Below are positions 23,511-48,398 of a DNA stretch of 64,000 bases, piece by piece. The notes beneath the pieces are model-generated. The model searched no databases and was not told the DNA's origin. It was given only the letters and a program-made list of their open reading frames with translations. Location: NCBI GenBank assembly GCA_028716165.1, contig JAQUQI010000005.1, positions 24,996 through 88,995 on the forward strand. Reading direction: 5' to 3'. Position 1 is the first letter of the stretch, and each line of letters starts with the position of its first letter. The position numbers and the translations under genes were made by a program. This DNA comes from Candidatus Omnitrophota bacterium. GTDB taxonomy: Bacteria > Omnitrophota > Gorgyraeia > JABMRG01.

Positions 23511-23788
23511 TACTGCGCAGTTATAATCCAGGCGATATTTTGATAAGTAAGGCACCGTCTTAAAACGCGCGCTTGCCGCTCTTTATTATTTTTTCGGTTT
23601 TTTTCGTGTATCCATGGTGAAAATCTGACCGGGAAGGAGGGAAAAAGTAAAAGCTGATTTTTCAGGATTTTAGCTTGACGCATATTGCTGATTTTGATAA
23701 ACTAATAACACTTATCCTTTAAAAGGATCAAAATAACCGCTGTTTCTGCGTTTAATGCATGAGAACTTATATAAAGGAGGAACGGATA

Positions 23789-24433: not shown

Positions 24434-24465
24434 TAAACAATCCGCATGCTTTTTCCGAGCTGCAA

Positions 24466-24520
24466 CCGGCGCGCCTTTATGGCGTGCCGGCTTTGCCCCG
24501 GACGGCGGTGGTTTATTTTT
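24466..24520 (+). terminator. Possible terminator hairpin after the CBM-like gene at 23789
   Basis: CCGGCGCGCC-tttat-GGCGTGCCGG (one mismatch) followed ~20 nt later by TTTATTTTT. Confidence 0.3.
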
Positions 24521-24534
24521 AATATGAGGGATTT

Positions 24535-25812: not shown

Positions 25813-25932
25813 TATTTGTTTTAAGGCCACGGAAGCCTTCATTTGAGCGGAGAAAAGGCTTGTAGTCTCGGGTACCGGGAATTAATTGAATAATAAGCAT
25901 GATTCCGAAGGCAAGAGAAAGGATATGAACGT

Positions 25933-27240: not shown

Positions 27241-27270
27241 GGCAGGCGCTCTACCCTAATTCTTTCATAG

Positions 27271-28170: not shown

Positions 28171-28177
28171 TTTTTTT

Positions 28178-31624: not shown

Positions 31625-31640
31625 TAAAAAAGGAGGAGAC

Positions 31641-32243: not shown

Positions 32244-32247
32244 AAAC

Positions 32248-32292
32248 ATGCCCGGGATAAATATTTTTTAATTTGTCCCGGGCGTATTTTTT
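32248..32292 (+). terminator. Terminator-like hairpin after the CBM-like gene at 31641
   Basis: ATGCCCGGGA, an 18-nt AT-rich loop, TCCCGGGCGT, then ATTTTTT. Confidence 0.45.
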
Positions 32293-32304
32293 CAAATATA
32301 AGCA

Positions 32305-34434
32305 ATGACCCGACATTATAGCGGACGCAGAAAATACATAAGGCTGGATTCATGTTTTCCTGTTGAATTCAGCCTTTCTCTTTGCGCGGATAATCCTGCC
32401 CGCCAATACCAGGGCTTTACATGTGATGTGTCCGAAGGAGGGATATGCCTTAAAGCAAAAGGCCTGTCTCCCGAGCAGGAAAAGATTCTATCAGAGAAAG
32501 GGTCTGAATTGGATTTAATTATACACATGCCTCTAAGAGGCAAGCCTGTGCCGGCCAGAGCGGAAATCATGTGGACAAGCAAACCGCGCCAAAGCCCGGA
32601 TAGCGGGCAGGGTATTGATATAGGCCTTCAATATTCTGCCATAGATGACGCTGACAGGGCCAGGGTTATAAATTATGCCCGCAGGCTCAAATGGCTGCCG
32701 CGTATCGCGGCGCTGTTGTTTCTTGCGCTATTTTTTTTCATGTTTATACTCGCTTTCTACCATATTAAATCTATAGGCATAAATAAGTTCCTGGTAAGGC
32801 GCGTAGTTTCTATTTCAATGATAAAATCGCGCATAGAGCGCCAGCTAAATGAGGTCAGGGTAAGGAAGGACATGCTGGAGTCCGGGCTGTCAAAGGGCAC
32901 GGCTGATGAAGACAATCTTAGGTCGCAAATAGCATTTATTGAAAAAAGAGCCGATGAAGAAAAGCTTAGGCTCAAGTCCATGCTGGAGCAGTCGGACCTT
33001 GAGAAAAAAAGAATTGAATCCCAGATTGATAATCTTCAGGCAGGGCAGGAAGGCGCTAACAGCATGGCTTCCATGGTCATAGAGTCAAGGCTTTCCCGGA
33101 TTAATTCCGATACTGAACTTTTGCAGATGGAATTAGAAGAGGTCCTTAAGAAGGCCGCGCTTGAGAAAAAGACGCTTGAAGGAAGGCTTCAATCACTTAA
33201 GCAGGAAAATGAAGCGTTAAAAAAAGGATTGAAGTCAACGTTTGAAGACGAGGAATTACTGGAAGAACAGCTTGCCGGATTAAGGTATGAAAGCGGCGGC
33301 GTTGAAAAGGCCGGCATAGAACGTATGTTTGAATGGGTAAAGTTGAGACAGGTCAGAAAGACCGGCCTTGTATTAAGCTATGAAGGAGACCCCTCGCTTA
33401 AGGACTGGGCGTTTATTTACGACCAGGCGCTTGCGGCGCAGGCCTTTATTTTTATGGACGAACCCGAACGGGCTAAAAACGTCCTTGACTTTTTTAACAA
33501 TAAAGCCGCGCTTAGCGAAGGCCTGTTTTATAATGCCTATGACGCAAAAACAGCCGACCCGAGAGAGTACACCGTTCATTCGGGCCCTAATATATGGGTG
33601 GCTATATCTGCCTGTCAATATACCTACTGGATGGGCAATGCCCAATTTCTTGAGATGGCTGAAAGAATAGCCTTGAAAATGATCGGTATGCAGTCCGCGT
33701 CACCGGATGGAAGCATTAGCGGAGGCCCCGGCGTCAACTGGGTCAGCACAGAACATAATATTGATGCTTATGCCTTATTCAACATGCTCTACAGGTTGAC
33801 CAATAAACAGGAGTATGCCTCTGCCGCGCTGAAAGCGCTTGATTGGCTTAAAACGTCAGGTTATAATAGCCAGGAAGCCAGGTTTATGCGGGGCAAAGGA
33901 GATGCCACTATTGCCACAGATACCTTTTCCTGGGCCATAGCCGCCCTGGGGCCAAAGGCGCTTTTAAATAACGGTATGGATCCCGATGGTATAATGGAAT
34001 TTGCCGAAAAGGAATGCAGGGTACGGGTGAAGTTTTACAGGCCATCCGGCAGTGTTATTGATGTGACGGGCTTTGATTTTTCTAAGGCCGGCAATATGGC
34101 CCGCGGAGGAATCGTTTCAACGGAATGGACCGCGCAGATGATAGTCGCGTTAAAAATAATGGCTGATTATTATAAGATTGCCGGCGATACTGTCAAACAG
34201 AACGTATATGGTTCCAAGGCCGAGTATTATCTGGCGCAACTCGGCCAGATGGTCATATCGTCGCCATCTCCCACGGGCCAGGGCCAGGGCTGCCTTCCAT
34301 ACGCGTCTATTGACAATGTTGACACAGGACATGGCTGGCGTGTCGCCTGCGGCCGGCGGACAGGTTCTGTAGCCGGCACGATTTATTATATATTTGCTTA
34401 TACAGGTTATAACCCGCTCTCCCTTGATATCTGA
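32305..34434 (+). CDS. PilZ-domain / transmembrane / coiled-coil protein with a C-terminal (alpha/alpha)6-like glycoside-hydrolase-like domain
   Basis: N-terminal PilZ signatures RRKYIRLD (RxxxR) and DVSEGGICL (DxSxGG). A TM helix at about aa 135-155. A ~170-aa heptad-rich coiled coil. The C-terminal ~400 aa is a helical toroid-like domain (…YDQALAAQAF…GPNIWVAISACQY…TGSVAGTIYYIFAY). Confidence 0.55.
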   Translation: MTRHYSGRRKYIRLDSCFPVEFSLSLCADNPARQYQGFTCDVSEGGICLKAKGLSPEQEKILSEKGSELDLIIHMPLRGKPVPARAEIMWTSKPRQSPDSGQGIDIGLQYSAIDDADRARVINYARRLKWLPRIAALLFLALFFFMFILAFYHIKSIGINKFLVRRVVSISMIKSRIERQLNEVRVRKDMLESGLSKGTADEDNLRSQIAFIEKRADEEKLRLKSMLEQSDLEKKRIESQIDNLQAGQEGANSMASMVIESRLSRINSDTELLQMELEEVLKKAALEKKTLEGRLQSLKQENEALKKGLKSTFEDEELLEEQLAGLRYESGGVEKAGIERMFEWVKLRQVRKTGLVLSYEGDPSLKDWAFIYDQALAAQAFIFMDEPERAKNVLDFFNNKAALSEGLFYNAYDAKTADPREYTVHSGPNIWVAISACQYTYWMGNAQFLEMAERIALKMIGMQSASPDGSISGGPGVNWVSTEHNIDAYALFNMLYRLTNKQEYASAALKALDWLKTSGYNSQEARFMRGKGDATIATDTFSWAIAALGPKALLNNGMDPDGIMEFAEKECRVRVKFYRPSGSVIDVTGFDFSKAGNMARGGIVSTEWTAQMIVALKIMADYYKIAGDTVKQNVYGSKAEYYLAQLGQMVISSPSPTGQGQGCLPYASIDNVDTGHGWRVACGRRTGSVAGTIYYIFAYTGYNPLSLDI

Positions 34435-34542: not shown

Positions 34543-37500
34543 ATGCCCGGCAAAGTAAAATATTATTTTGGTAAAAATAATGAGTTCATAATAGACAATT
34601 ATTATCTTGCCAAGCCGTTTTCAAGTTTCTTTTGCGGCATAGCCGGCCAATGGGGCGTTCCCGCGTGGGTTTTTTATGTAAATCGCGGCCAGGCAATAGC
34701 TTCATTCGGCACGAAGGATAAAGATAATCCGATAATGGAATTTCAGCCTGCCAACAAATCTTATTATCTTGGCCCGATACTCGGTTTCAGGACTTTTATA
34801 AAAATAATGAGCGCTTCAGGGCCTGTTTTTTATGACGCGTTTTCAACAAGCCTTCACAATAGTTCATATGATATTAAAAATTCCATGATCATTACTTCTG
34901 CCGGGCTTAAACTGTCCGAGGTCAATCACACGCTGGGCATCGGGGTTTGCGTAGAATATTTTACCATACCCGGAGACACTTACGGCGCCCTTGCCAGAAA
35001 GGTAACTATAACCAATCTGGCAAAAGAAGCGAAAGAATTTGAGGTATTAGACGGCCTGCCGCAGATTCAGCCTTATGGCGTAAATAATTTTTTTTTAAAA
35101 CAGATGTCGCGCACTATTGAAGCCTGGGTTGTGGTTGAAAACCTTGAGAATGACCTGCCGTTTTTCAGGCTCAAAGTGGAGCCGGCCGACCGTCCGGAGG
35201 TTGTGCATGTAAAAAGAGGTAATTTTTATGCGCCCTTTGATTCTAAGGGGGCAATGAAAGTAATTGTTCAGCCTGATCTTGTTTTCGGCGCGCAAAACGA
35301 CCTAATCATTCCCGCCGCTTTTTTACGAAAGGGCTTTTTCCCGGTTCCAAAGTGCCAGTTTGCCAAGTCAAAGACTCCTTGCGCGTTCGCGTATAAACGT
35401 ATCAGGCTTAAGCAGGGTGATGAGTATGTTTATCATTCTATTTCCGGCAATATCAGCAGTCTGGACAATCTGAAGGCCCAGTCAAAGCGCATAACAGAAC
35501 CGGCTTATTTTGACCGCAAAAAGATAGAGAACGATTCTCTTGTCGCGTCTTTACAAAGCACTGTGTTTACCAAGTCCTCGTCGGCCGCGTTTGATTCATA
35601 CTGCGCTCAAAATTTTCTTGACAATATAATGCGCGGAGGGTATCCGGTTTCCATAGAGTATGCTTCGGGCAGGAAAAACCTGTATCTGTATTCCCGTAAA
35701 CACGGCGACCTTGAACGCGATTATAATATGTTTTTGCTTGAACCTTCCTGTTTTTCACAGGGCAACGGTAATTACCGTGACATTAATCAAAACCGCAGGT
35801 GCGATGCCTGGTTTAACCCGGCGCTCGGCAGTGAAAATATATATTATTTTTTCAACCTTCTACAGACCGATGGGTATAACCCGCTCGTAATATGCCCCGA
35901 CCGGTTTGAATTCAATCAAGACAAGGCCGCGATAAGCGGTTTTTTAAACCGTTATAATATGGAAAAGGTATCGGCATTTCTTAAAAATGATTTTACTCCC
36001 GGCGAGCTGATGAACTTTATTGACAGCAATAACATCATGCTAAGAGGCTCCAGGCCCGGCCTGTTAAGCGTTATTATGGAGAATTCAACAAAACATTCGC
36101 ACGCGGTTCATGGAGAAGGATTTTGGACGGACCACTGGCATTATTGCCTTGACCTTCTGGAGAGTTTTGCTGGGTTATACCCTGAAATGTTGAATGAAAT
36201 ATTGTTCCAAAAAGAGGATTTTACTTTCTTTGACAACGCGTATATTGTTAGTCCAAGAAGCAAAAGGCATCTCCTGCATAAAGGTTTTTTTAGGCAATTC
36301 GGCAGTGTTGTAAAAGACGCTGAAAAGGAAAGTATTATCGCTTCACGGGGAAGGCCGGCTAATATATCAAGGTCTAAAAACGGCAAAGGCGGCATATATA
36401 ATACGACACTGCTTGTCAAGATGGCGGTTGTTATAGCCAATAAATTCGCAAGCCTGGACCCCTTCGGCTGCGGCATAGAAATGGAAGCGGATAAACCTAA
36501 TTGGTATGACTCTCTCAACGGCCTGCCCGGGCTTTTGGGTTCATCAACTTGCGAGACTTTTGAGTTAAAAAGATGGATCATGTTTTTAAGGGGCGCGGTC
36601 GCGGGATTAGGGCCTGCGAAGAAAAACAGCGCCCGTATCCCGGTTGAGCTATATGACCTATTAAACGGATTATGCCGGACATGCGAAAGCGGCTTAAGCG
36701 ATTTCACGCGCTGGGACAGGAGAAACAGCTTAAAAGAAAAATACCGCTTAAAGACAAAATTTGGTTTTGAAGGCAGTGAAAAAGAAATAAGGCTTAAAGA
36801 GCTGGATTCTATATTGCGCGTATTTTTGTCGTTAATTGACAGGGGCCTGGAAAAGGCTTATGATAAAAAGTCAAAACTTTACCGCTCTTATTTTATCAAT
36901 GAGGCGGTTGAATATAGCGCTGTATCAAAAGATCCGGACAAGGTTTATGCCAGGGCCGGGAAATTCCGGCAGACGCCTCTTCCTTTTTTTCTTGAAGGCA
37001 TGGTACACGCGTTCAGGGTATCCGGCAAAAAGGATTGCCTGAAATATCACAAGACGGTCCGCTCCAGCGGGCTGTTTGATAAAAAGCTTAAAATGTATAA
37101 AGTCTGCGCAGCGCTTTGCAGCATGCCGGAAGAGATAGGCCGTTCGCGCGTGTTTACTCCGGGCTGGCTTGAGAATGAATCTGTCTGGCTGCATATGGAA
37201 TATAAATATATGCTGGAATTATTGAAATCAGGCCTTTACAGGGAATTTTTTGATGATTTTCGCAATGTTTTTGTTCCGTTCATGAAACCGGAGATATACG
37301 GCAGGAGTATATTTGAAAATTCTTCTTTTATTGTCTCAAGCGCTTTTCCTGAAAAGGGCCTTCATGGCAATGGTTTTGTGGCGCGCTTAAGCGGTTCAAC
37401 GGCGGAATTCATAAATATCTGGCTGATTATGTGCCTGGGGCATAGGCCGTTTTATTTAGACAAGGAAGCAAGGTTATGCGCCGGATTCAAGCCCATCCTT

Positions 37501-37764
37501 CCCGGCTGGTTGTTCACCGCGGGGCCGGCAGAGGGGTTTGCGAAAGGTGTTTTCGCGTTTAGTTTTCTTTCAAAGACGCAGGTGGTTTATCATAATCCTT
37601 TGAGAAAAGATACTTTCGGCCCGTCAGGGGCAAAAATAAAGAGTATTTTTATGCGATGGACAGACGGCAGGACAGCCCGGTTTAAGGGTGCCTCTATACC
37701 GTATCCTTATTCAAACGACATAAGAAAAGGCGATATTTCGCGTATAGAGATAGAAATGGCCTGA
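34543..37764 (+). CDS. Large (1073 aa) putative glycoside phosphorylase/hydrolase distantly resembling the GH94 superfamily (GH94/GH149/GH161-like)
   Basis: No signal peptide. N-terminal beta-sandwich-like region followed by an (alpha/alpha)6-like region (…DHWHYCLDLLESFAGLYPEM…). Adjacent to a bona fide GH94 gene. This assignment is weak. Confidence 0.4.
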   Translation: MPGKVKYYFGKNNEFIIDNYYLAKPFSSFFCGIAGQWGVPAWVFYVNRGQAIASFGTKDKDNPIMEFQPANKSYYLGPILGFRTFIKIMSASGPVFYDAFSTSLHNSSYDIKNSMIITSAGLKLSEVNHTLGIGVCVEYFTIPGDTYGALARKVTITNLAKEAKEFEVLDGLPQIQPYGVNNFFLKQMSRTIEAWVVVENLENDLPFFRLKVEPADRPEVVHVKRGNFYAPFDSKGAMKVIVQPDLVFGAQNDLIIPAAFLRKGFFPVPKCQFAKSKTPCAFAYKRIRLKQGDEYVYHSISGNISSLDNLKAQSKRITEPAYFDRKKIENDSLVASLQSTVFTKSSSAAFDSYCAQNFLDNIMRGGYPVSIEYASGRKNLYLYSRKHGDLERDYNMFLLEPSCFSQGNGNYRDINQNRRCDAWFNPALGSENIYYFFNLLQTDGYNPLVICPDRFEFNQDKAAISGFLNRYNMEKVSAFLKNDFTPGELMNFIDSNNIMLRGSRPGLLSVIMENSTKHSHAVHGEGFWTDHWHYCLDLLESFAGLYPEMLNEILFQKEDFTFFDNAYIVSPRSKRHLLHKGFFRQFGSVVKDAEKESIIASRGRPANISRSKNGKGGIYNTTLLVKMAVVIANKFASLDPFGCGIEMEADKPNWYDSLNGLPGLLGSSTCETFELKRWIMFLRGAVAGLGPAKKNSARIPVELYDLLNGLCRTCESGLSDFTRWDRRNSLKEKYRLKTKFGFEGSEKEIRLKELDSILRVFLSLIDRGLEKAYDKKSKLYRSYFINEAVEYSAVSKDPDKVYARAGKFRQTPLPFFLEGMVHAFRVSGKKDCLKYHKTVRSSGLFDKKLKMYKVCAALCSMPEEIGRSRVFTPGWLENESVWLHMEYKYMLELLKSGLYREFFDDFRNVFVPFMKPEIYGRSIFENSSFIVSSAFPEKGLHGNGFVARLSGSTAEFINIWLIMCLGHRPFYLDKEARLCAGFKPILPGWLFTAGPAEGFAKGVFAFSFLSKTQVVYHNPLRKDTFGPSGAKIKSIFMRWTDGRTARFKGASIPYPYSNDIRKGDISRIEIEMA

Positions 37765-37883: not shown

Positions 37884-40316
37884 ATGAACCTGAAAAAATA
37901 CGGCTATTTTTCCAAAGACCGTCTTGAATTTATTATAACTAATCCTGTCACCCCCAGGCCTTGGATTAATTATCTTACCAATGAAGACTATTGCGCCGTT
38001 ATATCGCAAAATGCCGGAGGTTATAGTTTTTACAAAGACTGCCGAAGCGATAGGATACTGCGGTGGCAGCCCGATAACTGGCATTTTGACAGGCCGGGCA
38101 GGTATATTTATCTAAGGGATAAAAATACCGGTAAATGCTGGTCAGCCTCTTATCAGCCGATGAGGGTCAAACCGCAATTTTATCAGTCGCGGCATGGCTT
38201 GGGTTATACTATTACAAATACCACATATTACGGTATTAACATTGAAACCACATTTTTTGTCCCTTGCCATGATACCTGTGAAGTGTGGCATGTGAAGATA
38301 TCAAATGATACGTCAAAGACTAAAAACCTGGAGGTATATCCGTACGCGGAATGGCTTCTTGGGGATTACCATCAGGAACTTCGTTACCGCAATATAATGA
38401 ACCTTTACAATAGGGTCTGGTTTGATAAAACCAAAAAGGCCGTGTTTGCCAAAAAAACGGCATTCTGGGCGGATATGCGGATAAAACCCTATCCTTATAT
38501 AAATTTTCTTGCTTCAAGCCTTCCTGTGGCAGGCTATGCCACGCAAAAAGACGGTTTCTTGGGGCGATATAATACGGAGGAAACGCCGCAGGCTGTCCTT
38601 GAGGGGAGTTTTAAGAATTCAGGGTTTACTTCAGGCGAGGATTCTATAGCGTGTCTCAAACATAATGTGGTTTTGAAACCCGGCTCGCGCAAGGAATTTA
38701 CCATAGTGCTGGGGCAGACCGACAAAGATGACCATCTATCCGATATACTTGCAAAATACCGCAATGTTAAAAAAGCAAAAGAAGAATTTGCCAGAGTCAA
38801 GGCGCTTTGGAAGAAGAGAATCGCAGACAACATTGTGATAGAAACGCCGGATGATGATTTTAATAATATGATGAATTACTGGGTTAAGTACCAGGTTTAT
38901 ATATGTAATTTTTGGTCGCGTTCACCCAGTTATTATCATGAAGGTTCAGGCGGGCGGGGATACAGAGATTCATGCCAGGACGCTGAAAGTATTATGGCTA
39001 TAGACACAAAGCACGCCAAAAAGAAAATCAGGCGCATAGTTTCTCTTATCAGAAAAGACGGCACATGCGCCCCGGGTTTTTCCGATACCACAGGCCCTGC
39101 CGGCCACAGGCCGAACAAGGACCATCCTATTTGGCTTACCATGACTGTGTCGGCCTATGTCAAAGAGACCGGTGATAAGGAAATATTGCTTGAATATGCC
39201 CCCTATCTTAAAGACAAATGGATAAACGGCTGGTCTGTTGACACAAACTATCAGGCCGGCATTTCTACCGACGGGGAAGGGACTATATTTGACCATCTTG
39301 AGAGGAACCTGAATTTTACCTTTAATGATGTAGGGCCCAGAGGCCTGCCTCTTATAGGCCACGCGGACTGGAATGACGCGATAGACGCCGCCGGTATCAA
39401 GCTTAAGGGGGAAAGCGTCTGGCTTGCTATGGCGCTTGTCAGAAGCCTTAAGACATTGGCTGAAATGGCACTGCTTATAGGTCAAACGGAAAAAGCCGAT
39501 CAGCTTTTACATAAAGCCGGCACAATGACCGGCAGGATAAATGATTCCGCCTGGGACGGGAATTGGTACGTAAGGGGTTTTACTGATGAAGGGTTTATTT
39601 ACGGTTCCCGCAAAAATAAGGAAGGCAGGGTGTTTATCAATACGCAGAGCTGGGCCGTGCTTTCCGGTGTGGCTGATGCCGCGCGCAGAGAAAAAATACT
39701 GAAATCCGTTGATAAATATCTTAATGGTCCGCACGGCCTGGCGTTATTTTATCCGGCTTTTTCCAAATGGGACAGCAGATTAGGAAGGATCAGCATGTTT
39801 TCGGAAGGCACCAAGGAGAATGCCGCGGTATTTTGCCACGCGGTCATGTTTCAAGCGGTCGCGGAATGTATGGCCGGCCGAGGGAACAAGGCATATGAGG
39901 CTATGAAGAAGATCATGCCATGTAATCAGAAGGACTACGATCTTTATAAGACAGAACCTTTCGCCTATGCGGAATATATTGTAGGCCCCCAGCACCCTTA
40001 TCTCTCCGGAGAGGGCGCTTTTACATGGATAACGGGTAATGCGGGTTGGAATTTTTTGGCGGCTACCGAATGGGTATTGGGCGCCAGGCGCGAATATGAA
40101 GGTTTGCGTATAGATCCCTGTATACCAAGTTCCTGGAAACAGGCAAGGATAAAAAGGCCTTTTAGAGGGTCTATTTATGATATATTGATCAAAAACCCTG
40201 ATAACAAAGAAAAGGGAGTCAAAAAGCTTATTGTTGATGGCAGGCAGATGGAGTCAAATCTTATTTATCCGCACTCGGACGGCAATGTCCATAAAGTTGA
40301 GGTTCTTTTAGGCTGA
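37884..40316 (+). CDS. GH94 glycoside phosphorylase (cellobiose/chitobiose/cellodextrin phosphorylase family)
   Basis: The N-terminus matches GH94 throughout: PRPWINYLTNEDYCAVISQNAGGYSFYKD ... RHGLGYTITNTTYYGINIETTFFVP ... EVWHVKISN. 810 aa, cytoplasmic. RBS ATAGGAGA. Confidence 0.8.
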   Translation: MNLKKYGYFSKDRLEFIITNPVTPRPWINYLTNEDYCAVISQNAGGYSFYKDCRSDRILRWQPDNWHFDRPGRYIYLRDKNTGKCWSASYQPMRVKPQFYQSRHGLGYTITNTTYYGINIETTFFVPCHDTCEVWHVKISNDTSKTKNLEVYPYAEWLLGDYHQELRYRNIMNLYNRVWFDKTKKAVFAKKTAFWADMRIKPYPYINFLASSLPVAGYATQKDGFLGRYNTEETPQAVLEGSFKNSGFTSGEDSIACLKHNVVLKPGSRKEFTIVLGQTDKDDHLSDILAKYRNVKKAKEEFARVKALWKKRIADNIVIETPDDDFNNMMNYWVKYQVYICNFWSRSPSYYHEGSGGRGYRDSCQDAESIMAIDTKHAKKKIRRIVSLIRKDGTCAPGFSDTTGPAGHRPNKDHPIWLTMTVSAYVKETGDKEILLEYAPYLKDKWINGWSVDTNYQAGISTDGEGTIFDHLERNLNFTFNDVGPRGLPLIGHADWNDAIDAAGIKLKGESVWLAMALVRSLKTLAEMALLIGQTEKADQLLHKAGTMTGRINDSAWDGNWYVRGFTDEGFIYGSRKNKEGRVFINTQSWAVLSGVADAARREKILKSVDKYLNGPHGLALFYPAFSKWDSRLGRISMFSEGTKENAAVFCHAVMFQAVAECMAGRGNKAYEAMKKIMPCNQKDYDLYKTEPFAYAEYIVGPQHPYLSGEGAFTWITGNAGWNFLAATEWVLGARREYEGLRIDPCIPSSWKQARIKRPFRGSIYDILIKNPDNKEKGVKKLIVDGRQMESNLIYPHSDGNVHKVEVLLG

Positions 40317-40442: not shown

Positions 40443-40478
40443 TTGACAAAAGATAGGTTTTCTGCTATATTTATAATA
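40443..40478 (+). promoter_or_regulatory. Near-consensus sigma70-type promoter upstream of the family-A gene
   Basis: TTGACA (40443-48), a 17-nt spacer, TATATT, and a TATAAT just downstream. Confidence 0.5.
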
Positions 40479-40605: not shown

Positions 40606-41352
40606 ATGAGAGTATTATTATCCATTATTATGACCATTACGATGGTAATCTCTACAAGCGGACTGTCTTTTGCCGAGTTCTCAAGCATAGGCAAAAGCAC
40701 TTTTTCCGCTTCAGGCACGGTAGGCGGTTCGGGCGGTGTTACAGTGGCTTTTAGCGCCAACCTGAAAAACATTACAGGCGATACTACAAGCTCATCTGTA
40801 ACATGGTCTACAATTACCGCGGGCACTACCGGATGGTTGGCGGCACAGCAGTATATCGCTGTGCAAGGGTTTGCTACCTACAGTGATTGGGGTATACAGA
40901 TATATACCAATAACACCAATTATACTGGATCAGGTGACCCTGCCGGATTGATCAATCAAAGCAATACTATTTACAGTTTGCCTATGGCATGGAGAACAAA
41001 GACAACCAAACTTGCTTCAGGCAGTACTGAACTTAGTATAATTGAAAAGACAGTCGGAGGATATGCAGTCCTCGCCGATGGAACAGGGCAGACTTATTAT
41101 CCCTGGTTCTATATGCTTGATAAGCGATCGGATCTGGATACAGCTACTGCCGGCGTTCAGGCATTTGGTAACTATCAGGAGTATGCGACCTTTATAGGTT
41201 CTAAAGGTTATCAGCATGCGCCTTCAGATTATGCCACGCCGTCTTCTGCTGATATGACATATTATGTTTATCTTGGAGCCAAGTTTACGCAGGCGGCCCC
41301 GGGAGCGACATACGCTACCAGTTCCTTGACCGTAGAGATGTATCGTCTCTAA
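40606..41352 (+). CDS. Secreted protein, family A (shares its mature N-terminus with the ORF at 43598 and a core domain with the ORF at 41464)
   Basis: RBS AAGGAGGTGA 6 nt upstream of the ATG at 40606. The alternative upstream ATG at 40549 also has a strong SD. Signal peptide ...SGLSFA | EFSSIGKSTFSASGTVGG. The domain VTWSTITAGTTGW...WGIQIY.NN...GDPAGL.N......SLPMAW is paralogous to the ORF at 41464. Confidence 0.55.
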   Translation: MRVLLSIIMTITMVISTSGLSFAEFSSIGKSTFSASGTVGGSGGVTVAFSANLKNITGDTTSSSVTWSTITAGTTGWLAAQQYIAVQGFATYSDWGIQIYTNNTNYTGSGDPAGLINQSNTIYSLPMAWRTKTTKLASGSTELSIIEKTVGGYAVLADGTGQTYYPWFYMLDKRSDLDTATAGVQAFGNYQEYATFIGSKGYQHAPSDYATPSSADMTYYVYLGAKFTQAAPGATYATSSLTVEMYRL

Positions 41353-41429
41353 TATATAAGATTTTCCTGGCCCTGCCTGACACGGTTAAGCTATCAGGCA
41401 GGGTTAGGACAGGGCCAGGTTCTTATATA
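41353..41429 (+). terminator. Extended GC-rich imperfect hairpin between the two family-A paralogs (terminator/attenuator-like)
   Basis: TATATAAGA-tttt-CCTGGCCCTGCCTGA ... TCAGGCAGGG(ttagga)CAGGGCCAGG-tt-TCTTATATA. Begins 1 nt after the stop codon and has no U-run. Confidence 0.4.
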
Positions 41430-41463
41430 TTAGAAAAGTTTTTATTTGTATCCGGGAGATACT

Positions 41464-42753
41464 ATGAGATTTACTAACATGTATAGAAAAAATTCTATGT
41501 ATTTATTTGTCACGGCCTTAGTATTGTCTGTGGCCTCGTACTGTTATGCCGCTGACAGCGCCTCTGTTGTTGTCAAAGGTCTTACAGAGGGCAGTCTGAA
41601 TGTTGTTGTACGCAATATCAGTAACAATCAGCCGGCAAGTAACGGCCTTATTACATGGAGTAATCTTATCGCGGGCCAGACAGGATGGAGAGTAGCCAAT
41701 CAATACATAGAGATTTCTCATAGTGGTTTGCCGGCAGGCTGGGGCATACAGATATATTCGGACAATAAAAACACATCGGCCTCTCCTAAATATATCGGTA
41801 CCGCTAATCCCGCCGGGTTAGTCAATGCTAAATATTCCGTATTATCTGCGCCTATGGCGTGGCAGGTGACGGATTCTGTCATAAGCCCTACTACCCCTGT
41901 CCAGCGAGCTGATAATACTGGTTTCACCAATTATCTGTGGCATTTTTTAAAAGATGTCAATACTACCGATGACCCTAAAACAGAAGCCTATAATGAGACT
42001 TTCCAGAACGCAGAAGATTATATAACGGTCTGGAACCAGTCTGGCATAGCGTGGAATGAAGGCGGCAGGACCGGCAACCCCAAGAAGGCGTATATTTATT
42101 TGGCGGCAAACTTTACCATGTCCCCTGCCGGATCCCAGTATCAGACATCAACTCTTACTATTGAAGTTTATAAAGGCGTTTCACCTTTTCCTGTATATAT
42201 CTATAAGGATGCTTCTTTGGCGGATTATCCAGACGAAGCAGGTGCCACGCTTGCTAATCACTTTAACCCTTCAGGTTGGATGAATTACAATGGCCAATTT
42301 AGCGTTAATCCGAAATGCAAATCTGTTATACCTTATTCGCCTCCGCACTGTTTTGAGATTACATGGAATGGCAATGAGGGAAGCGATGGATGGACATGGG
42401 GAGGCATCCAATGGCTTGAACCGGCAGATATATGGGAAAAAAATGGCAAAAGCGCTACGCATAACGGTTATGACTTAAGAGGGGCCTCCGCTTTAACTTT
42501 TTGGGCGCGCACCAATACGGATAATAAAAGAGGGTTGAGTATAGGTATCTATATGGGTAATACTTGGGATTCATGTAAACAGACGAGTACGGATTGGGTA
42601 TCGCTTAGCACGCAGTGGAAGAAATTCAGCATTTATGTCAGCGGACGAAATATGTCCAATGTTACCGGAGGCCTTGCGATAGTATTTGATTCGGAACACG
42701 ATCCTGAACCCGAGGGTTGTGTAATATATATTGATGATATTAAGTTTGAATAA
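41464..42753 (+). CDS. Secreted two-domain protein: N-terminal family-A core domain plus C-terminal CBM-like beta-sandwich (paralog 3 of the CBM-like family)
   Basis: Signal peptide ...SYCYA. ITWSNLIAGQTGW...WGIQIYSDN...ANPAGLVN...LSAPMAW parallels the ORF at 40606. The C-terminal NHFNPSGWMNY...WTWGGIQW......GYDLRGA..L.FWAR........YIDDIKFE parallels the ORFs at 23789 and 31641. Confidence 0.55.
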   Translation: MRFTNMYRKNSMYLFVTALVLSVASYCYAADSASVVVKGLTEGSLNVVVRNISNNQPASNGLITWSNLIAGQTGWRVANQYIEISHSGLPAGWGIQIYSDNKNTSASPKYIGTANPAGLVNAKYSVLSAPMAWQVTDSVISPTTPVQRADNTGFTNYLWHFLKDVNTTDDPKTEAYNETFQNAEDYITVWNQSGIAWNEGGRTGNPKKAYIYLAANFTMSPAGSQYQTSTLTIEVYKGVSPFPVYIYKDASLADYPDEAGATLANHFNPSGWMNYNGQFSVNPKCKSVIPYSPPHCFEITWNGNEGSDGWTWGGIQWLEPADIWEKNGKSATHNGYDLRGASALTFWARTNTDNKRGLSIGIYMGNTWDSCKQTSTDWVSLSTQWKKFSIYVSGRNMSNVTGGLAIVFDSEHDPEPEGCVIYIDDIKFE

Positions 42754-42804
42754 TGTAATATTTGGCGGCCGAAAGATCAGAGTATTGCAGCTGATAAGGC
42801 CGAG

Positions 42805-43578
42805 ATGAACATGAAAAAGAATATATATATAATAATATTAGTAGTAATGGCGCTTATGGCGCCCGTTCAAGCGAGGGCCGGGATTATGGTAACGCCTGAT
42901 AGGCATATTGTATTTCTTGATCCGGGCGAATCAAAAACCGTGATATATAATATTCACAATGAAGGGGCGGAAGACATTAATATGATCATAGAGCCTAAAG
43001 GCTGGTCAGGGTTAAAAGATCCCTATGCCTGGCTGTCTTTGGAAACAGATGAAATATACGTTCGCGCCGGAGAGTCAACGCCTCTTGTAGCAAATATCAA
43101 TGCCCCTGAAAAAGAAGCGGGGGAAATGGTCGCCATGCTTTTTCTTTGTTATAAAGATAAAATGGGTTCTCAATTAAATATAAAAAACGGTGTCCCGCTT
43201 TATATGATAGTGAAGGGGACGGAATATTATAGTTTAAATATAAAAGATATTCATATCTCTTTTTCCAGAAAAAATGATTTTCTTGACCTTAATTTTAACG
43301 TAGAAATGGAAAATACCGGTAATGTTCATATCGTGCCGGATATCAGTATTGCGATAAAAAACAATAACGGCAGACAGCTTAACGAATTGATATTAAAGAG
43401 GCCTCATATTGTCTTACGCGGCAAGACCCAACTATATACGCTTTCTTGGCGCGAGCCGGATTTAAGAGACGGCACCTACAAAGCTACCGTGATGTTTGAA
43501 TTTGAAGACAAGATAAAACAGACGATAAAAGAGTTTGAATTTAATTTGTCCGGGGTTAACGTAAGCCTCGTGGAATAG
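42805..43578 (+). CDS. Periplasmic beta-sandwich protein with a PapD/pilus-chaperone-like N-terminal pattern (tentative)
   Basis: Signal peptide ...VQARA. GIMVTPDRHIVFLDPGESKTVIYNIHNEGAEDINMIIEPKGW resembles the chaperone N-domain pattern (TR.VF.G.EKS.T..I.N....P.L.Q.W). Weak. Confidence 0.3.
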   Translation: MNMKKNIYIIILVVMALMAPVQARAGIMVTPDRHIVFLDPGESKTVIYNIHNEGAEDINMIIEPKGWSGLKDPYAWLSLETDEIYVRAGESTPLVANINAPEKEAGEMVAMLFLCYKDKMGSQLNIKNGVPLYMIVKGTEYYSLNIKDIHISFSRKNDFLDLNFNVEMENTGNVHIVPDISIAIKNNNGRQLNELILKRPHIVLRGKTQLYTLSWREPDLRDGTYKATVMFEFEDKIKQTIKEFEFNLSGVNVSLVE

Positions 43579-43597
43579 ACGAAAGCAGGCGGTTAAT

Positions 43598-46500
43598 ATG
43601 AAAAATACAGCAAGGCTCAATTTAGCGGCCGGGTTTAAGGTAAAAAGCGTAAGCATTTTACTTACAGCCGCCCTATGCCTTACCAATATCCAGCCTTCTT
43701 TTGCCGCTTTCAGTTCTATAGCGCAATCGGGTTTTAGCGCTTCCGTTACCATCGGAGAAGTGAAAAATTCTTATCCGGAGAAACCGGATTTTTATGCTTC
43801 GGCATATCCTTACATAAAATACTTTTTGGATAGAGCGCTTGATAACACTGTCCAGACGGATTATGCATTTAACGGGTTTACAAGGAGTTTTCAGCGTTAT
43901 AATGGCGGCCAAACGGCCAACTGCGAGTCATTGATATTTTCCGGGGCGTCAAGTTATGACCAAGCCATATTGGGAAGGATAAGCCTGTTTAACGGCCTTA
44001 CCACGATACTTGATACTTATGTGAGTTTTTATAATAATCTTTCTGACGAGTTAAACCCGGTTTTGAAATGCAGCAGCGGCTATACGGACGACGCCGGTAA
44101 TGAGTTGTTATACGGGCCGTATCGTATAGTACGGATAGCAAATCGGGACACATCCCCGGATTGGTGGAACAGTTGGGACTGGTCTGTTGATACCGGAGCT
44201 GCCGCTGTCCTTATTATGTATGCTGCCGAGGCCTATGACAAGACTCTGACGCAAGACTACAAAAAATTTGCTGTTCTTTTGGGCGATTATATACTCAAAC
44301 TCCAGGACGCTGACGGCGGCCTGCGTTATGGCCCAAGGGGCATGTATCATGATTCAGGCCCGGACTTTTATTGGAATTTAAAATCAACCGAACAGAATGA
44401 GCGCGCCCTTTATGCCCTTGAGGCTTTATATCATATAACCCAGAACAGTTCTTATCAACAAGCGGCGGACAAGATAAAGGCATGGCTTAAGAGTATGTAT
44501 GATTTTAGTACTCACCTGTTCCACTCAGCGTCAAGCCGCGAAAATGGTGTGTGGATAAAATCAGATTTTGGTTATGTGGCCACTGATGTAATGGCGCTGG
44601 CGCCTTTGAGCATGATGTTTGACGATACATTTTTTGGCGCAACCCAGAACCAGAGGGATGCCGAAGTGGACGCGATGTTTACCGCTATAGAAACAAGGAC
44701 GGCATTTCTTAATGCTGATAGTAAACCGGTCTTTTTCAAGTTCTCTGTTTCGCAGACAGGTAGTTATGGCTCGGTTGAGATATCTTCTCAAATGGCACTG
44801 GCGTATTTGAGGGCCGCGCAGATATATCACGAGAGAGGGTCAAGCCAAACAAAGGCGGCCCAATACCTTGATAAATACAACACCTTAGTAAACAGCATAG
44901 AAGGTTTTTTTACTGTTCCTGACGACGATGCCGCTTCAAAAATAGCGCCTTACGCTTCTTATCTGGATAAGACTGTTGCCGGGAATGTCCCCACAGGCAC
45001 GGGTTTTGACACCTATAACTGCGAGGCCGCCCTTGCCTCCGGTTATTTTGTTTTCGCAAAGACAGGTTATATACCGTATCTTTATGATGGCGGTAATGGT
45101 ATTCCTAATGTAGGGGGCGCTGTAATACCCGCAAGCGGCGATAGCGATTATGACGGTATTCCCGATAATTATGACGCTGATCCATCCAATCCTTATGACG
45201 CTTATGAAATGGATGATACCGGGTTTACGGGGCTTGAAAAATATATTCTAACCGCGCGCGGTATAGATATTTTTGACAGCACTATGTATGTAGCGTTTTC
45301 CGCCTCGCCTTTAACGGGCCAGATACCGCTTGACGTCACATTTACCGTTAACGCGATAGGCAGTGATATTGTTAAATATGAATGGGATTTTGACGGGAAC
45401 GGAACATATGACAGATGGCAATACGCTTCCGAAGGCAATACCGTAAAATATAAATATACGGCTGGAGGCGCGCATAATGCAAAAGTCCGTGTGACCAATA
45501 AGAATGGGAAAATAGCTGTTTCCGGTCTGACCGTCAACGCGTTAAAAACACCATCTTCGCCTACGGCTCGGTTGTCCGGCGATCTATTGTCATATCCTGT
45601 GGCAAATGAATTCGTAATAGCCTCAACCCGTGCCCTGAAAGGAACCGGCGCGGCATATTCCGGAAAAGAGATTGTGATGTATCAATGGGATGTCTCCGGA
45701 AACGGAGAGTATGAGCTTTCATCCGCGAAGTCGGCTGATGCCACAAAGAGATTTGACGAGACGATATCGCGTATGTTTACAGGCTCGCTTAAAGTGACTG
45801 ATTCGTCGGGTTTATCAGATACAGCCTATTTGAGCGTGATGTCCAACGCCGCGGGATGGGATAATTCTAATTACAGGCCTGTTGTTTATCTGGATAATAG
45901 CGTTGTATATGGGGTATCGGCTTCAAGCGTTACATTGGGTGGTTACGGCATGCCTGCCGCCGGCAATAGCTACGGATATGCTAAGAAACTTGAATGGGAT
46001 TTTGAATCAGACGGTATATATGATTGGTCGTCATCTGTAGAAAACAGCGGGTGGACAGGTTTTGCAAGCGTTAATCGCAAATACGGCGCCCCGGGCATTT
46101 ATAGGGCCACATTAAAGGCCCACACAGAGGCTAATCTGTCTTCTTATAAAACCGGTATAGTTATTATAGAAGGCGGTGAGCCCGCGGTCCGTGCCGAAGC
46201 CCTGGTATCTGCCGATGGAGGCCCGCTTACGGGTGAGATTACAAGCGCGGTGGTCCCTGTCAAGGCAAGATTCAACCATTTGTCAAGCACGGCGGATGCT
46301 GTTCAATTTGAATGGGATTTTGACGGTGATAAGAGAATTGATTATACAACGACAGACCCCAATGAAACACCCGTGTATAACTATGCGGTACCGGGTTATT
46401 TTGTCGCCACACTAAAGGTGACCGATTCCAGCGGAAATATTGACACAGATTACATCCCTGTGTTTTGTGCTTATCCGGTTTCTTATGGTAGCGCTATAAA

Positions 46501-47518
46501 GGCCCCCAAAGAAGGCCAGGTTATCGCCGGAAATTCCGTAACGCTGTCTGCCGATGTCTTTCCTGATGACGCGGGGATAAACAGCGTTATGTTCCAGTAT
46601 AGCCCTGACGGAGGTGTTTCATGGTTTGATATCGGCTATGGCCAGCCGGTCATGTCTTACGCGGTCGCCTGGGATACTACCGCGCGCGCTAATGGCACCT
46701 ATAATGTAAGGGCTATAGTAAACGGTATTTCTTCATCTGATTTCAAGACCATGACCCTTATCATAGACAACAGTTCCGCGGCGCCCGATGTCTATGAAAA
46801 TAATAATGGCACCTATGTAAAGAGCCAGGTTGTAGACCCGTGGCAGTCAAGCAGTATGGTGCTTTTAGACGGCACGCGTATAGACATACCTTATGGCTCC
46901 GTTCCGGGCAGCAGCGTTACAACGCTTACTTCCAAGCAGGTCATTATACCGGGCGCTAGTAATACTATAGATGTTACTATGACGGGATTAAGCCAGTTCT
47001 TGAAAGATATAACTATTACGATACCTTATCCGGATGCCGATAATGACGGTATTATTGACGGAACAAATATTAATGAAAATGATCTTGTCCTGAAATGGTA
47101 TAACGAGAATACGGGTGAGTGGGAAATACTGTATAATTCGGTAGTATATCCTAATGAGAATCTTATTTCAGCACAGGTGAATCATTTGACTATTTTTGGC
47201 TGGGGTGTTTTGGCCGGCGGCGCGGCGGCTGTTTCTTCCGGAAGCGGTTCATCATCCGGCTCAAGCTCGGTTGCCAGTTATTGCTTTATCGCGACAGCGG
47301 CATACGGCACTCCCGCATCGCAAGACGTATTGACTTTAAGAGCATTCAGGGATAATTATCTTTTAAAGTCGCGGTTAGGCGCGGCATTTGTTGACAATTA
47401 CTACAAGATTAGCCCGCCTTTGGCGAGATTTATATGCGATAAGCCTGTTTTAAGAAAGCTTGTAAGGCTTCTTTTGAAACCTTTTGTCCTGATTGCCCGC
47501 GCGGCAAATGCCTGCTGA
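43598..47518 (+). CDS. Large secreted protein (1306 aa) with PKD-like repeats, thrombospondin-type-3-like Asp-rich repeat, and a C-terminal Gly/Ser linker plus a CFIATAAYG-containing tail
   Basis: Signal peptide ...QPSFA | AFSSIAQSGFSASVTIGEV (family-A N-terminus). PKD-like motifs are YEWDFDGNGTYD, WDVSGNGEYE, LEWDFESDGIYD and FEWDFDGDKRIDY. DSDYDGIPDNYDADPSNPYD is TSP3-like. C-terminus: GSGSSSGSSSVASYCFIATAAYGTP...FRDNYLL...YY.ISPP. Confidence 0.6.
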   Translation: MKNTARLNLAAGFKVKSVSILLTAALCLTNIQPSFAAFSSIAQSGFSASVTIGEVKNSYPEKPDFYASAYPYIKYFLDRALDNTVQTDYAFNGFTRSFQRYNGGQTANCESLIFSGASSYDQAILGRISLFNGLTTILDTYVSFYNNLSDELNPVLKCSSGYTDDAGNELLYGPYRIVRIANRDTSPDWWNSWDWSVDTGAAAVLIMYAAEAYDKTLTQDYKKFAVLLGDYILKLQDADGGLRYGPRGMYHDSGPDFYWNLKSTEQNERALYALEALYHITQNSSYQQAADKIKAWLKSMYDFSTHLFHSASSRENGVWIKSDFGYVATDVMALAPLSMMFDDTFFGATQNQRDAEVDAMFTAIETRTAFLNADSKPVFFKFSVSQTGSYGSVEISSQMALAYLRAAQIYHERGSSQTKAAQYLDKYNTLVNSIEGFFTVPDDDAASKIAPYASYLDKTVAGNVPTGTGFDTYNCEAALASGYFVFAKTGYIPYLYDGGNGIPNVGGAVIPASGDSDYDGIPDNYDADPSNPYDAYEMDDTGFTGLEKYILTARGIDIFDSTMYVAFSASPLTGQIPLDVTFTVNAIGSDIVKYEWDFDGNGTYDRWQYASEGNTVKYKYTAGGAHNAKVRVTNKNGKIAVSGLTVNALKTPSSPTARLSGDLLSYPVANEFVIASTRALKGTGAAYSGKEIVMYQWDVSGNGEYELSSAKSADATKRFDETISRMFTGSLKVTDSSGLSDTAYLSVMSNAAGWDNSNYRPVVYLDNSVVYGVSASSVTLGGYGMPAAGNSYGYAKKLEWDFESDGIYDWSSSVENSGWTGFASVNRKYGAPGIYRATLKAHTEANLSSYKTGIVIIEGGEPAVRAEALVSADGGPLTGEITSAVVPVKARFNHLSSTADAVQFEWDFDGDKRIDYTTTDPNETPVYNYAVPGYFVATLKVTDSSGNIDTDYIPVFCAYPVSYGSAIKAPKEGQVIAGNSVTLSADVFPDDAGINSVMFQYSPDGGVSWFDIGYGQPVMSYAVAWDTTARANGTYNVRAIVNGISSSDFKTMTLIIDNSSAAPDVYENNNGTYVKSQVVDPWQSSSMVLLDGTRIDIPYGSVPGSSVTTLTSKQVIIPGASNTIDVTMTGLSQFLKDITITIPYPDADNDGIIDGTNINENDLVLKWYNENTGEWEILYNSVVYPNENLISAQVNHLTIFGWGVLAGGAAAVSSGSGSSSGSSSVASYCFIATAAYGTPASQDVLTLRAFRDNYLLKSRLGAAFVDNYYKISPPLARFICDKPVLRKLVRLLLKPFVLIARAANAC

Positions 47519-47571: not shown

Positions 47572-48273
47572 ATGAGAAATATAATTACGGCTGTAATAGC
47601 GGTCTTATTGGTTTTTACTGTATTTTTTACCTCTACTACCCATGCCGAGCGGCCAGACGATGCCGGCCTATTGCCCGAAAAATTATTAAGCGGACTTCAG
47701 CTTAGGGGCACGCTTTTTACCGACAGCCTTAGCCCTTTGGCTATAATAGAATACGCCAATAGCGGACAGGTCATGATACATGAATTGGGTGATTCTGTTG
47801 AAGGGTTTAAGATCGTAAAGATATCAAGGGGAGAGGTCATAATGTCTTCCGCGGGCAGGCAGTTTACGCTTTCTTTCCCTGATGGCGGCGTTTTACAACC
47901 GATGGTTTTTGCCGCTAATGAAGGTAAATGGTATAATATAAAAACCGAAGGCAATACCATCGTTACCGATAGGGCCACTGTCGCGGGGGCGATATTAAGG
48001 ATAAAGGATATTATGAAGGATGTCCAGGTGGGCCCATATTCAGAAAACGGTAAAAAATCAGGTATGGCCGTGGCAAAATTAGATGAAAAAGGCATATTGC
48101 AGGAGATTGGCGTGAAACAGGGTGATATAATAAAATCCGTAAACGGCCTTCCGATAAATAATCCTTATCAGGTGATAAATGCCTACCGCAGGCTGAAAGA
48201 TAAAAGCGAGTTGAGAGTTGAAATTATCAGGAACGCAAGCCCGCTGGTTCTTAATTACAGGATTGAAAAATAA
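47572..48273 (+). CDS. GspC/PilP-like inner-membrane protein with C-terminal PDZ domain (type II secretion / type IV pilus-associated, tentative)
   Basis: N-terminal TM anchor, a central beta-rich segment, and a C-terminal PDZ-like GMAVAKLDEKGILQEIGVKQGDIIKSVNGLPINNPYQV. Confidence 0.45.
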   Translation: MRNIITAVIAVLLVFTVFFTSTTHAERPDDAGLLPEKLLSGLQLRGTLFTDSLSPLAIIEYANSGQVMIHELGDSVEGFKIVKISRGEVIMSSAGRQFTLSFPDGGVLQPMVFAANEGKWYNIKTEGNTIVTDRATVAGAILRIKDIMKDVQVGPYSENGKKSGMAVAKLDEKGILQEIGVKQGDIIKSVNGLPINNPYQVINAYRRLKDKSELRVEIIRNASPLVLNYRIEK

Positions 48274-48370
48274 AATCACTTTTTTACAAAATTTGTATTG
48301 AATGGTCAACCGGTCCTGTGCTATCCTAAAAAAGACATATACTCGGTGGGGATAGCACGCTCAACTTTAA

Positions 48371-48398
48371 GGGGAACGGGTATATTCCCCTTTTTTTA
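48371..48398 (+). terminator. Rho-independent terminator downstream of the GspC-like gene
   Basis: GGGGAA-cgggtata-TTCCCC followed by TTTTTTT. A second 9-bp-stem hairpin (GTGCTATCC...GGATAGCAC) lies at 48318-48358. Confidence 0.6.

Follow-up and report, generated by a model that had tools for sequence, protein, structure and literature searches.

The principle of β-strand complementation is already known. TasA, archaeal bundling pili, cannulae, and DUF1102 tubes are built from secreted β-sandwich subunits that donate an N-terminal strand (PMC9674648, PMC9245690, PMC12518558), and in TLP-1, an orphan pond-water fibril, the Ig-like fold of one protomer is completed by an N-terminal strand of another, a strand that is unstructured in the AlphaFold2 (AF2) monomer model (PMC11494351). 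In Lactobacillales and Bacillales, WxLIP is the constant partner of the small and large WxL proteins, and AlphaFold predicts that a loop of WxLIP turns into a strand filling a gap in the WxL β-sandwich, next to the WxL N-terminus (PMC10599100, PMC9772566). Here we describe a cluster of open reading frames (ORFs A to F) in a 64-kb stretch of an Omnitrophota genome (hereafter the window), in which two secreted proteins, A and D, share an N-terminal tag directly after their signal peptides. We propose, at what we judge to be about an even chance, that this tag is a donor β-strand completing or augmenting the β-sandwich domain first seen in A (the A-domain) when that domain belongs to another protein of a four-component cell-surface system.

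Compared with these systems, a WxLIP-like component is familiar as well. What appears to be new is the A-domain, the three-class logic of tag and domain, a putative donor-only anchor with a type IX secretion system (T9SS) or CFI-box sorting domain, and the occurrence in diderm candidate phyla. Few members of Omnitrophota and Elusimicrobiota have been cultured, and many are ultra-small and associated with hosts.

An N-terminal tag shared by ORFs A and D

The product of ORF A, which is 100% identical to NCBI protein PHV77_03875, reads MRVLLSIIMTITMVISTSGLSFA up to the predicted cleavage site and EFSSIGKSTFSASGTVGG after it; D reads ...CLTNIQPSFA before its site (a stretch also given as LTAALCLTNIQPSFA) and continues with AFSSIAQSGFSASVTIGE. 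In a single BLASTP comparison of A with D, the N-termini alone align (17/36 identities, E = 1e-5) and the rest of the 1306 residues of D gives no match, so that the two proteins have in common only the end of the signal peptide and the next ~20 residues. When the D 21-mer was slid over all stop-free six-frame 21-mers of the window, the best non-self match was the A N-terminus, scoring 61 against 29 for the next best (z = 8.5). These results agree with an earlier note on this DNA, which had described a near-identical stretch right after the two signal-peptidase sites of otherwise unrelated proteins. No third copy was found within the window, either in the six-frame scan or with a hidden Markov model (HMM) of the tag. 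The reading frame of A is also as the earlier note had it: homologues have a conserved upstream "KEVK" that is a translated ribosome-binding site (RBS), AAGGAGGTGA, and the true start is therefore ATG 40606.

At the DNA level, the two motifs are 56% identical, and 7 of the 14 identical residues are encoded by different codons, TCN/AGY serine switches among them. Hence, the tag has been kept at the peptide level, and a recent duplication, copy, or gene conversion between A and D is ruled out. All Omnitrophota loci examined have the motif in their A and D orthologues, and it recurs in related loci from other phyla; the earlier note had named non-recurrence as one observation that would overturn its view. 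The shared N-terminus is supported as a functional module of an assembly cluster. The tag is rich in Ser, Ala, Gly, and Phe, and one might suspect a chance likeness of low-complexity Ser/Ala/Gly-rich sequence following signal peptides. That explanation is effectively refuted by the z score against all 21-mers of the window and by the conservation of the tag positions in orthologues and across phyla.

Familiar classes of processing signal do not describe the tag. Recognition of the sortase or exosortase type, suggested in the earlier note, is inapplicable to a shared element that is N-terminal, and A, B, and D have no LPXTG or PEP-CTERM match. The leader of type IV pilins and type II secretion system (T2SS) pseudopilins, in which cleavage after Gly is followed by F(T/S)L(I/L)E and a hydrophobic helix, was considered and rejected, since A and D have a Sec signal peptide with an S-F-A site and then a polar, strand-like tag. 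A scan of the two N-termini alone against NCBIfam returned no SipW-type or other signal model.

Three protein classes defined by the tag and the A-domain

The products of ORFs A and B have a domain in common (34% identity over 205 aa, E = 2e-29), which bears out the shared core seen in the earlier note. The close relatives of A (n = 73) come nearly all from Omnitrophota metagenomes and are all unannotated. None of the 73 matches a Pfam family, none of the curated models in Pfam and NCBIfam covers A, and we found no description in the literature of the A-domain family or of the gene cluster in Omnitrophota or Elusimicrobiota. When 1.84 billion cluster representatives were searched with a profile, 657 clusters (counted at 50% identity) were retrieved at E ≤ 1e-3, of which 446 remained at E ≤ 1e-10.

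The A-domain occurs in three architectures: small proteins of ~230-300 aa consisting of a signal peptide, the tag, and the domain; large proteins in which other modules come first and the domain lies at the extreme C-terminus; and B-type proteins, in which the domain comes first. In 85/91 small and 43/44 large members, the domain ends no more than 3 residues from the C-terminus of the protein. The modules carried by large members include a GH2 TIM barrel/GH2_C, GH72, CBM30, CBM11, F5/8 type C, SusE, SGBP-B, and fn3, and such carbohydrate-active or carbohydrate-binding cargo would fit surface display in a sugar-utilization neighborhood.

Among 72 small representatives, the tag follows the consensus A-F-T-S-V-x-K-S-T-x-T-A-x-V-x-F-x-G-x-G, with F at position +2 in 52/72 and A at +12 in 67/72; the window copies in A and D both fit it. 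The tag HMM detects 68 of the 73 small proteins, none of the 40 large proteins with a C-terminal A-domain, and none of the 10 B-type proteins. Because the model was trained on small proteins, the first of these counts is circular, and it is the zeros in the other classes that are informative. B itself has a shortened N-terminus (ADSASVVVKG...), from which the first half of the tag is missing. Across all ORFs of the fetched loci, nearly all matches of the HMM are N-termini of small A-domain or D-like proteins, the few others scoring ≤7 bits; the tag profile gave no match at E ≤ 10 against a 5.8-billion-protein index, being too short for a database of that size. The distribution of the tag defines three classes of protein, namely, those with tag and A-domain (A), those with the A-domain only (B and the cargo proteins), and those with the tag only (D).

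In D, the tag is followed by an α-rich domain of ~460 aa (residues 61-520), which has no relative in Pfam or the PDB. Orthologues of D in loci L001, L008, L009, and L010 have kept the tag and do not have this domain (for example, LSFA before the cleavage site and AFNSITKVNFSASVTIGGEGDTDFD after it), and homologues of the domain in other Omnitrophota pass straight from the signal peptide to "YSKPPLY..YPYIKYF" with no tag. Hence, the tag is a separable module. Tag-only proteins in Omnitrophota end in CFI-box-CTERM, a C-terminal domain of ~69 aa with a CFIATAAYG-type box that is found in D at residues 1229-1297 (NF041770, 90.7 bits; cutoff, 40) and is kept in its orthologues, whereas their counterparts in other phyla carry a T9SS type B sorting domain at the C-terminus (TIGR04131, 36-38 bits; cutoff, 35). 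What is constant in the D class is therefore the N-terminal tag and a C-terminal sorting domain, with a variable middle. A literature search found no documented function of the CFI-box domain. Elsewhere in Omnitrophota (P0074-P0094), what comes after the α-rich domain is dockerin type I repeats, FG-GAP, Ig tails, or a CFI-box, meaning that the same cargo is mounted on different anchoring devices; the dockerins imply cohesin-type scaffolds in the phylum.

A scan of species-representative genomes yielded 35 loci, which, with two contigs fetched earlier and less one duplicate, make 36 tabulated loci. They span Omnitrophota, Elusimicrobiota/Endomicrobia, Caldiserica, Firestonebacteria, and Goldbacteria, along with some bins labeled Clostridia or Planctomycetia. 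An A-domain gene is present in 35/36 loci, and 33 of these 35 also have a C-family gene, usually adjacent. At least 10 Omnitrophota loci have the order GH94 - A (one or two copies) - B - C - D - E - F; the typical unit outside Omnitrophota consists of a small protein (tag and domain), C, a large protein (cargo and C-terminal domain, no tag), and a tag-only protein. D-like genes adjoin a C-like gene in L011, L012, L013, L015, L018, L021, L024, L026, L032, and L036. E and F are conserved after D in Omnitrophota loci and absent from most non-Omnitrophota loci that have the tag. The two tags of one locus closely resemble each other, as with FQSVSRATVAASVLVGG and FQSVSVKTVGAAVVTGG in L036 (an Elusimicrobiota locus with a 258-aa small protein, a 294-aa C, and a 431-aa anchor) and QQFQSIRISTITAQANV and QNFQSISISTVVAEAYV in L021.

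Proposed strand donation and its alternatives

With the 73-sequence alignment, AF2 predicts an all-β structure for A with a predicted local distance difference test score (pLDDT) of 93.9 and a predicted template modeling score (pTM) of 0.88; a single-sequence run reached a pLDDT of 38 and was unusable. The top Foldseek match to the model is the TasA fiber, with modest scores, and the nearest structural neighbors are polymerizing subunits. The structure prediction that the earlier note had recommended thus gives a fold resembling donor-strand pilins. Given that β-sandwiches are common and the scores modest, we take this match as a lead on the fold class and as no proof of mechanism. Cohesin (Coh5) was also considered as a relative of A and rejected, a PDB profile search with the A family giving a non-significant E = 0.41.

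In the monomer model, the tag (the first 21 mature residues of A) has no regular secondary structure and a pLDDT of 81-88. Such values could mean that the tag is simply the element with which the A-domain fold begins and that D obtained it, together with the signal peptide, by domain shuffling and carries it without function. The N-terminus of B, where the second half of the tag is kept ahead of the A-domain, would fit this as well. We nevertheless regard this explanation as very improbable. The 40 large proteins with a tag-less C-terminal A-domain indicate that the fold does not need the tag, the D copy is at least as conserved as the A copy across Omnitrophota, proteins with only the tag are found again in distant phyla, where other domains follow it, and the synonymous divergence of the tag reflects long-term purifying selection.

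The earlier note had proposed ORF C as a PapD-like chaperone. In support of this, C is secreted, has two Ig-like domains, and belongs to a family that is a near-constant neighbor of the A-domain genes; membership in the PapD family was not borne out, as neither C nor any of 27 family members collected from the loci and aligned matches PapD_N or PapD_C. The family instead matches WxLIP: 14/27 members match WxLIP_PGBD (DUF916, PF06030; best E = 1.3e-7) and 3/27 match WxLIP_HBD (DUF3324, PF11797), and a profile of the family matches EfmWxLIP1 in the PDB (9i25/9i1y) with both domains covered (E = 0.002). There are also weak family matches to the "PapD-like" Ig domains of ASH/Cep192. C ends in ...EFNLSGVNVSLVE with no hydrophobic segment, and the same holds across the 27-member alignment, so a C-terminal transmembrane helix is absent. 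The first strand of the family has the pattern V-x-P-x-R, with an invariant Pro and, two positions on, a mostly basic residue (R in 18/27, K in 4/27) in the alignment column of C residue 33 (about 42901-42903 of the window). This residue recalls the carboxylate-anchoring Arg8 of PapD-like chaperones and, by analogy, may be meaningful in a system where the A-domain lies at the protein C-terminus.

The relationship to WxLIP raises the alternative that C is the only partner onto which the tag docks as a strand, and that C holds A-type and D-type proteins together in a static surface platform of the kind proposed for WxL/WxLIP, with no strand donation and no polymer. In the model for WxL proteins, a WxLIP hairpin pairs with the strand beside the WxL N-terminus (PMC10599100), and C is the most constant neighbor of the A-domain genes. 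We consider this alternative unlikely. It leaves unexplained the tag-less A-domain cargo proteins of the same loci (0/50 with the tag), C has no counterpart of the membrane helix that anchors WxLIP, and the polymerizing subunits among which A finds its nearest structural neighbors point in another direction.

If the tag does act as a donor strand, the three classes would take on distinct roles, and the simplest scheme accommodating all of them is strand complementation of fixed polarity. The tag of D would occupy the A-domain of a small subunit, and the small subunit's own tag would occupy the next A-domain, forming a stalk or adaptor. A tag-less cargo protein (B or the GH/CBM proteins), acting as acceptor only, would end the chain distally, and D, acting as donor only, would tether the base of the assembly to the cell through its C-terminal sorting domain. 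In the periplasm, C could serve as a chaperone or adaptor that binds the same site of the A-domain until assembly, keeping A-domains assembly-competent, and in Omnitrophota, the GspC-like protein E and the large, putative outer-membrane protein F may provide a route across the outer membrane. Polymerization and surface location are both conjectural parts of this scheme, and a 1:1:1 complex would be equally possible.

The tag might alternatively be a post-Sec sorting or processing signal, read by an outer-membrane translocon (E/F) or by a dedicated peptidase, as SipW does for TasA. Its position right after the signal-peptidase site would suit such a role, as would its likeness in pattern to the start of mature TasA (AFNDIKSKDATFASGTLDL, as confirmed in 8aur_A) and, in Omnitrophota, the two genes that follow D, one GspC-like and the other for a large putative outer-membrane protein. 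However, E and F are absent from most of the tag-bearing loci outside Omnitrophota, the D-like proteins already have a C-terminal sorting domain, and the cargo proteins of the same loci, which would need export too, have no tag. No peptidase gene is conserved in the neighborhood of the tag loci, and there is no match to a SipW-type signal model or to Peptidase_M73. We therefore hold a sorting or processing signal to be improbable.

Returning to strand donation, a close parallel in gene content is the WxL/Csc cluster, in which a small domain-only protein, a large protein with domain and cargo, a tandem-Ig partner, and a small cell-anchored protein occur together (PMC9772566, PMC10599100). The arrangement that has been proposed for WxL platforms shares the topology of our scheme. 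An analogue of the WxL/Csc gene trio (small, large cargo, and WxLIP-like) is present in the 33/35 A-domain loci that have a C-family gene. WxL clusters, like the A-F cluster, have a carbohydrate-utilization context, the WxL domain shares with the A-domain its place at the extreme C-terminus, and C is related in sequence to WxLIP, though at the family level only. In Firmicute plasmid WxL loci, the order LPXTG mini-protein - small WxL - WxLIP - large WxL follows the same logic as D/A/C/B. There are also differences. The A-domain compared with a 10-sequence WxL alignment gives an hhalign probability of 0.2%, Pfam WxL (two Trp-x-Leu motifs) has no match in the 73 A-family members at E ≤ 10, and the only likeness, seen by eye, is in the C-terminal strand signature (TYKTNKLTVELF against TYRSTLTWEL); given this lack of profile similarity, we do not assign A to the WxL domains. 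In addition, WxLIP has a C-terminal transmembrane helix and C does not, the A-F hosts are diderm candidate phyla and the WxL hosts Firmicutes, the anchors are CFI-box-CTERM or T9SS type B here and LPXTG there, and the Omnitrophota loci have, in addition, a GspC-like gene and a large gene of outer-membrane type.

Two enterococcal plasmid loci offer a parallel to the A/D tag. In each, a common N-terminal motif directly follows the signal peptides of the LPXTG mini-protein and the small WxL protein: STESEGSIQFSG and TTTEGQITFTPG in one locus, STETEGTIQFTG and TTTEGQITFTAG in a second. The loci are on plasmids of Enterococcus mundtii (L038, 4454-5601) and E. gallinarum (L041, 4468-5599), and we found no description of this motif in two papers on WxL proteins (PMC10599100, PMC9772566).

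Chaperone-usher pili (Fim, Pap, Caf, Csu, CFA/I) show likeness of another kind. They have an acceptor-only tip with an extra binding domain and a periplasmic partner with two Ig-like domains, their rod subunits combine an N-terminal extension with an acceptor fold, as we propose for A, and pilin domains, like the A-domain, end at the protein C-terminus; the conserved Arg/Lys of the C family (22/27) is reminiscent of PapD Arg8. However, A (~225 aa) is larger than pilins, and these pili have no counterpart to a donor-only, C-terminally anchored component, PapH-type terminators being full pilins. Pfam Usher has no match in F or in any scanned ORF of the window.

The resemblance to TasA lies in the mature N-terminus, where both sequences follow the pattern xF(S/N)(S/D)I..(S/K)..TF(S/A)(A/S)G. 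In contrast, A, its N-terminus, and its 73 homologues have no Peptidase_M73 or SipW-signal match, hhalign against the TasA N-terminus was negative, and TasA-like systems assemble with no WxLIP-like partner (TapA is unrelated). No signal-peptidase family match was found among the scanned ORFs of ≥150 aa (15567-34434 and 40606-63243; the giant ORF, two GH94-like ORFs, and ORFs of <150 aa lay outside the scan), and no extra conserved signal-peptidase gene was seen in related loci. The TLP-1a/b fibrils (Tsinghua Lotus Pond, CryoSeek; PDB: 9ikk) have 11% identity to A with no sequence-level match, and their closest sequence relatives are from Flavobacteriales.

Several observations weigh against strand donation. 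No usher, PapD-family chaperone, or SipW-type peptidase was found at the locus, and of the earlier note's proposal of a fiber or surface-appendage cluster, it is the logic of the gene set and the pilin-like fold of A that hold up, and the usher and PapD-family chaperone that are missing. The profile comparisons of the A-domain with WxL and with TasA were negative. The C protein of the window, taken alone, has no family match in Pfam or NCBIfam, WxLIP included, so that its link to WxLIP is made through its family. The pLDDT of the tag in the A monomer model is fairly high, and the tag may just pack on its own domain. B retains the second half of the tag (SASVVV), which leaves the exact donor segment undefined. 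Finally, one point in favor of strand donation, the greater similarity of small-subunit and anchor tags within loci than between loci (permutation p about 1e-4), is confounded by shared phylogeny.

More tentatively, we see it as possible that the cluster represents a hitherto unrecognized, phylum-spanning class of donor-strand surface fiber or complex in Omnitrophota, Elusimicrobiota/Endomicrobia, Caldiserica, Firestonebacteria, and Goldbacteria, distinguished by a new β-sandwich, a three-class polarity, and a WxLIP-like chaperone. Such a class would be the diderm counterpart and evolutionary relative of WxL/Csc and would bridge the gap from there to TasA-like fibers and chaperone-usher pili; orphan environmental fibrils such as TLP-1 might come from it. 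Should the tag prove to be a donor strand, Omnitrophota and Elusimicrobiota would have a modular surface display of glycan-binding and glycan-cleaving modules whose roles could be read from sequence, with tag only denoting an anchor, tag and domain a stalk, and domain only a cargo. It would also offer a concrete, testable mechanism for the Gram-positive WxL/Csc clusters, whose assembly is so far only predicted, and extend the WxLIP component far outside Firmicutes. The unannotated 657-cluster family would join the small set of strand-exchange filament systems, and fibrils found by cryo-EM of environmental water would gain gene-level candidates.

Layout and surroundings of the cluster

ORFs A-F all lie on the + strand with short gaps between them (Table 1). 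A near-consensus promoter candidate before A and a terminator-like hairpin with a T-run after E suggest that A-E form one transcription unit, with F separate. F, whose ...YRF ending is like that of outer-membrane proteins, is possibly one itself; a PDB sequence search matched only its tetratricopeptide repeat (TPR), and from its synteny, it may have a role in the A-D system. Besides E, the window contains no other type II secretion gene.

Table 1. Features of the cluster and neighboring genes, in window positions
Feature	Position	Strand	Description or basis
Sigma-70-like promoter candidate, TTGACA-17-TATATT	40443..40471	+	Consensus match only, 11/12, TG extension
RBS GGAAAGGAGGTGA	ahead of A ATG 40606	+	Sequence scan
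ORF A, 248 aa, "small" subunit	40606..41352	+	Signal peptide 40606-40674, tag 40675-40737, predicted A-domain β-sandwich to C-terminus
Tag copy 1, EFSSIGKSTFSASGTVGGSGG	40675..40737	+	Mature residues 1-21 of A; fits family consensus
ORF B, 429 aa, "large" subunit	41464..42753	+	Signal peptide, shortened N-terminus, A-domain residues ~40-237, C-terminal domain residues 257-429
B C-terminal domain	42232-42750		Residues 257-429
ORF C, 257 aa	42805..43578	+	Secreted, two Ig-like domains; family related to WxLIP (DUF916 + DUF3324)
ORF D, 1306 aa, "anchor/cargo"	43598..47518	+	Signal peptide 43598-43705, tag 43706-43759, α-rich domain 43778-45157
Tag copy 2, AFSSIAQSGFSASVTIGE	43706..43759	+	Mature residues 1-18 of D
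ORF D distal part	PKD/Ig domains ~45296-46714; Gly/Ser linker; CFI-box-CTERM 47282-47488	+	Pfam PKD_4, PKD, Big_7; NCBIfam NF041770
ORF E, 233 aa, GspC-like	47572..48273	+	T2SS-C HR-type region and PDZ; NF041515 103 bits (below cutoff of 150); PDZ_2 27.1 bits
Terminator-like hairpin and T-run after E	48369..48392	+	Consensus match only
ORF F, 1343 aa	48432..52463	+	Signal peptide, one TPR, long region without known family, ends ...GGQYRF
Small secreted protein	23759-24433		Homologous to B C-terminal domain
GH2-like gene	24535-25812		Beside 23759-24433
GH2-like gene	29525-31624		Beside 31596-32243
Small secreted protein	31596-32243		Homologous to B C-terminal domain
PilZ-domain protein, 709 aa	32305-34434		Syntenic with A-F across Omnitrophota
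1073-aa protein	34543-37764		Syntenic with A-F across Omnitrophota
GH94-family phosphorylase-like	37884-40316		Syntenic with A-F across Omnitrophota
Giant ORF, 5144 aa	85-15519		Start 85 is first start codon after stop near window edge
776-aa ORF	16714-19044		Repeats parts of giant ORF

Upstream of A lie GH2-like genes, a sugar ABC transporter, a PilZ-domain protein, and two GH94-type genes; the GH94 label of the gene at 37884 comes from precomputed Pfam matches on orthologues. Downstream are housekeeping envelope genes, namely, ComEC, BamD-like, LptE, and MurJ, which mark the organism as a diderm. The PilZ-domain protein, the 1073-aa protein, and the GH94-family phosphorylase-like protein are syntenic with A-F across Omnitrophota. 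Matches of the PilZ query also fall on large A-domain proteins of Elusimicrobiota loci, which hints at cyclic di-GMP control or at a shared domain.

Two small secreted proteins of the window, each encoded beside a GH2-like gene and having only weak "choice-of-anchor J" matches, are homologues of the C-terminal domain of B (E about 1e-23). Many related loci also encode this domain as a protein by itself, a pattern suggestive of a glycan-binding module. At the start of the window, a giant ORF encodes 5144 aa, giant genes being a reported feature of Omnitrophota (bioRxiv 10.1101/2023.11.21.568195), and the 776-aa ORF that lies nearby repeats three internal segments and the last ~175 aa of the giant ORF (E = 1e-84).

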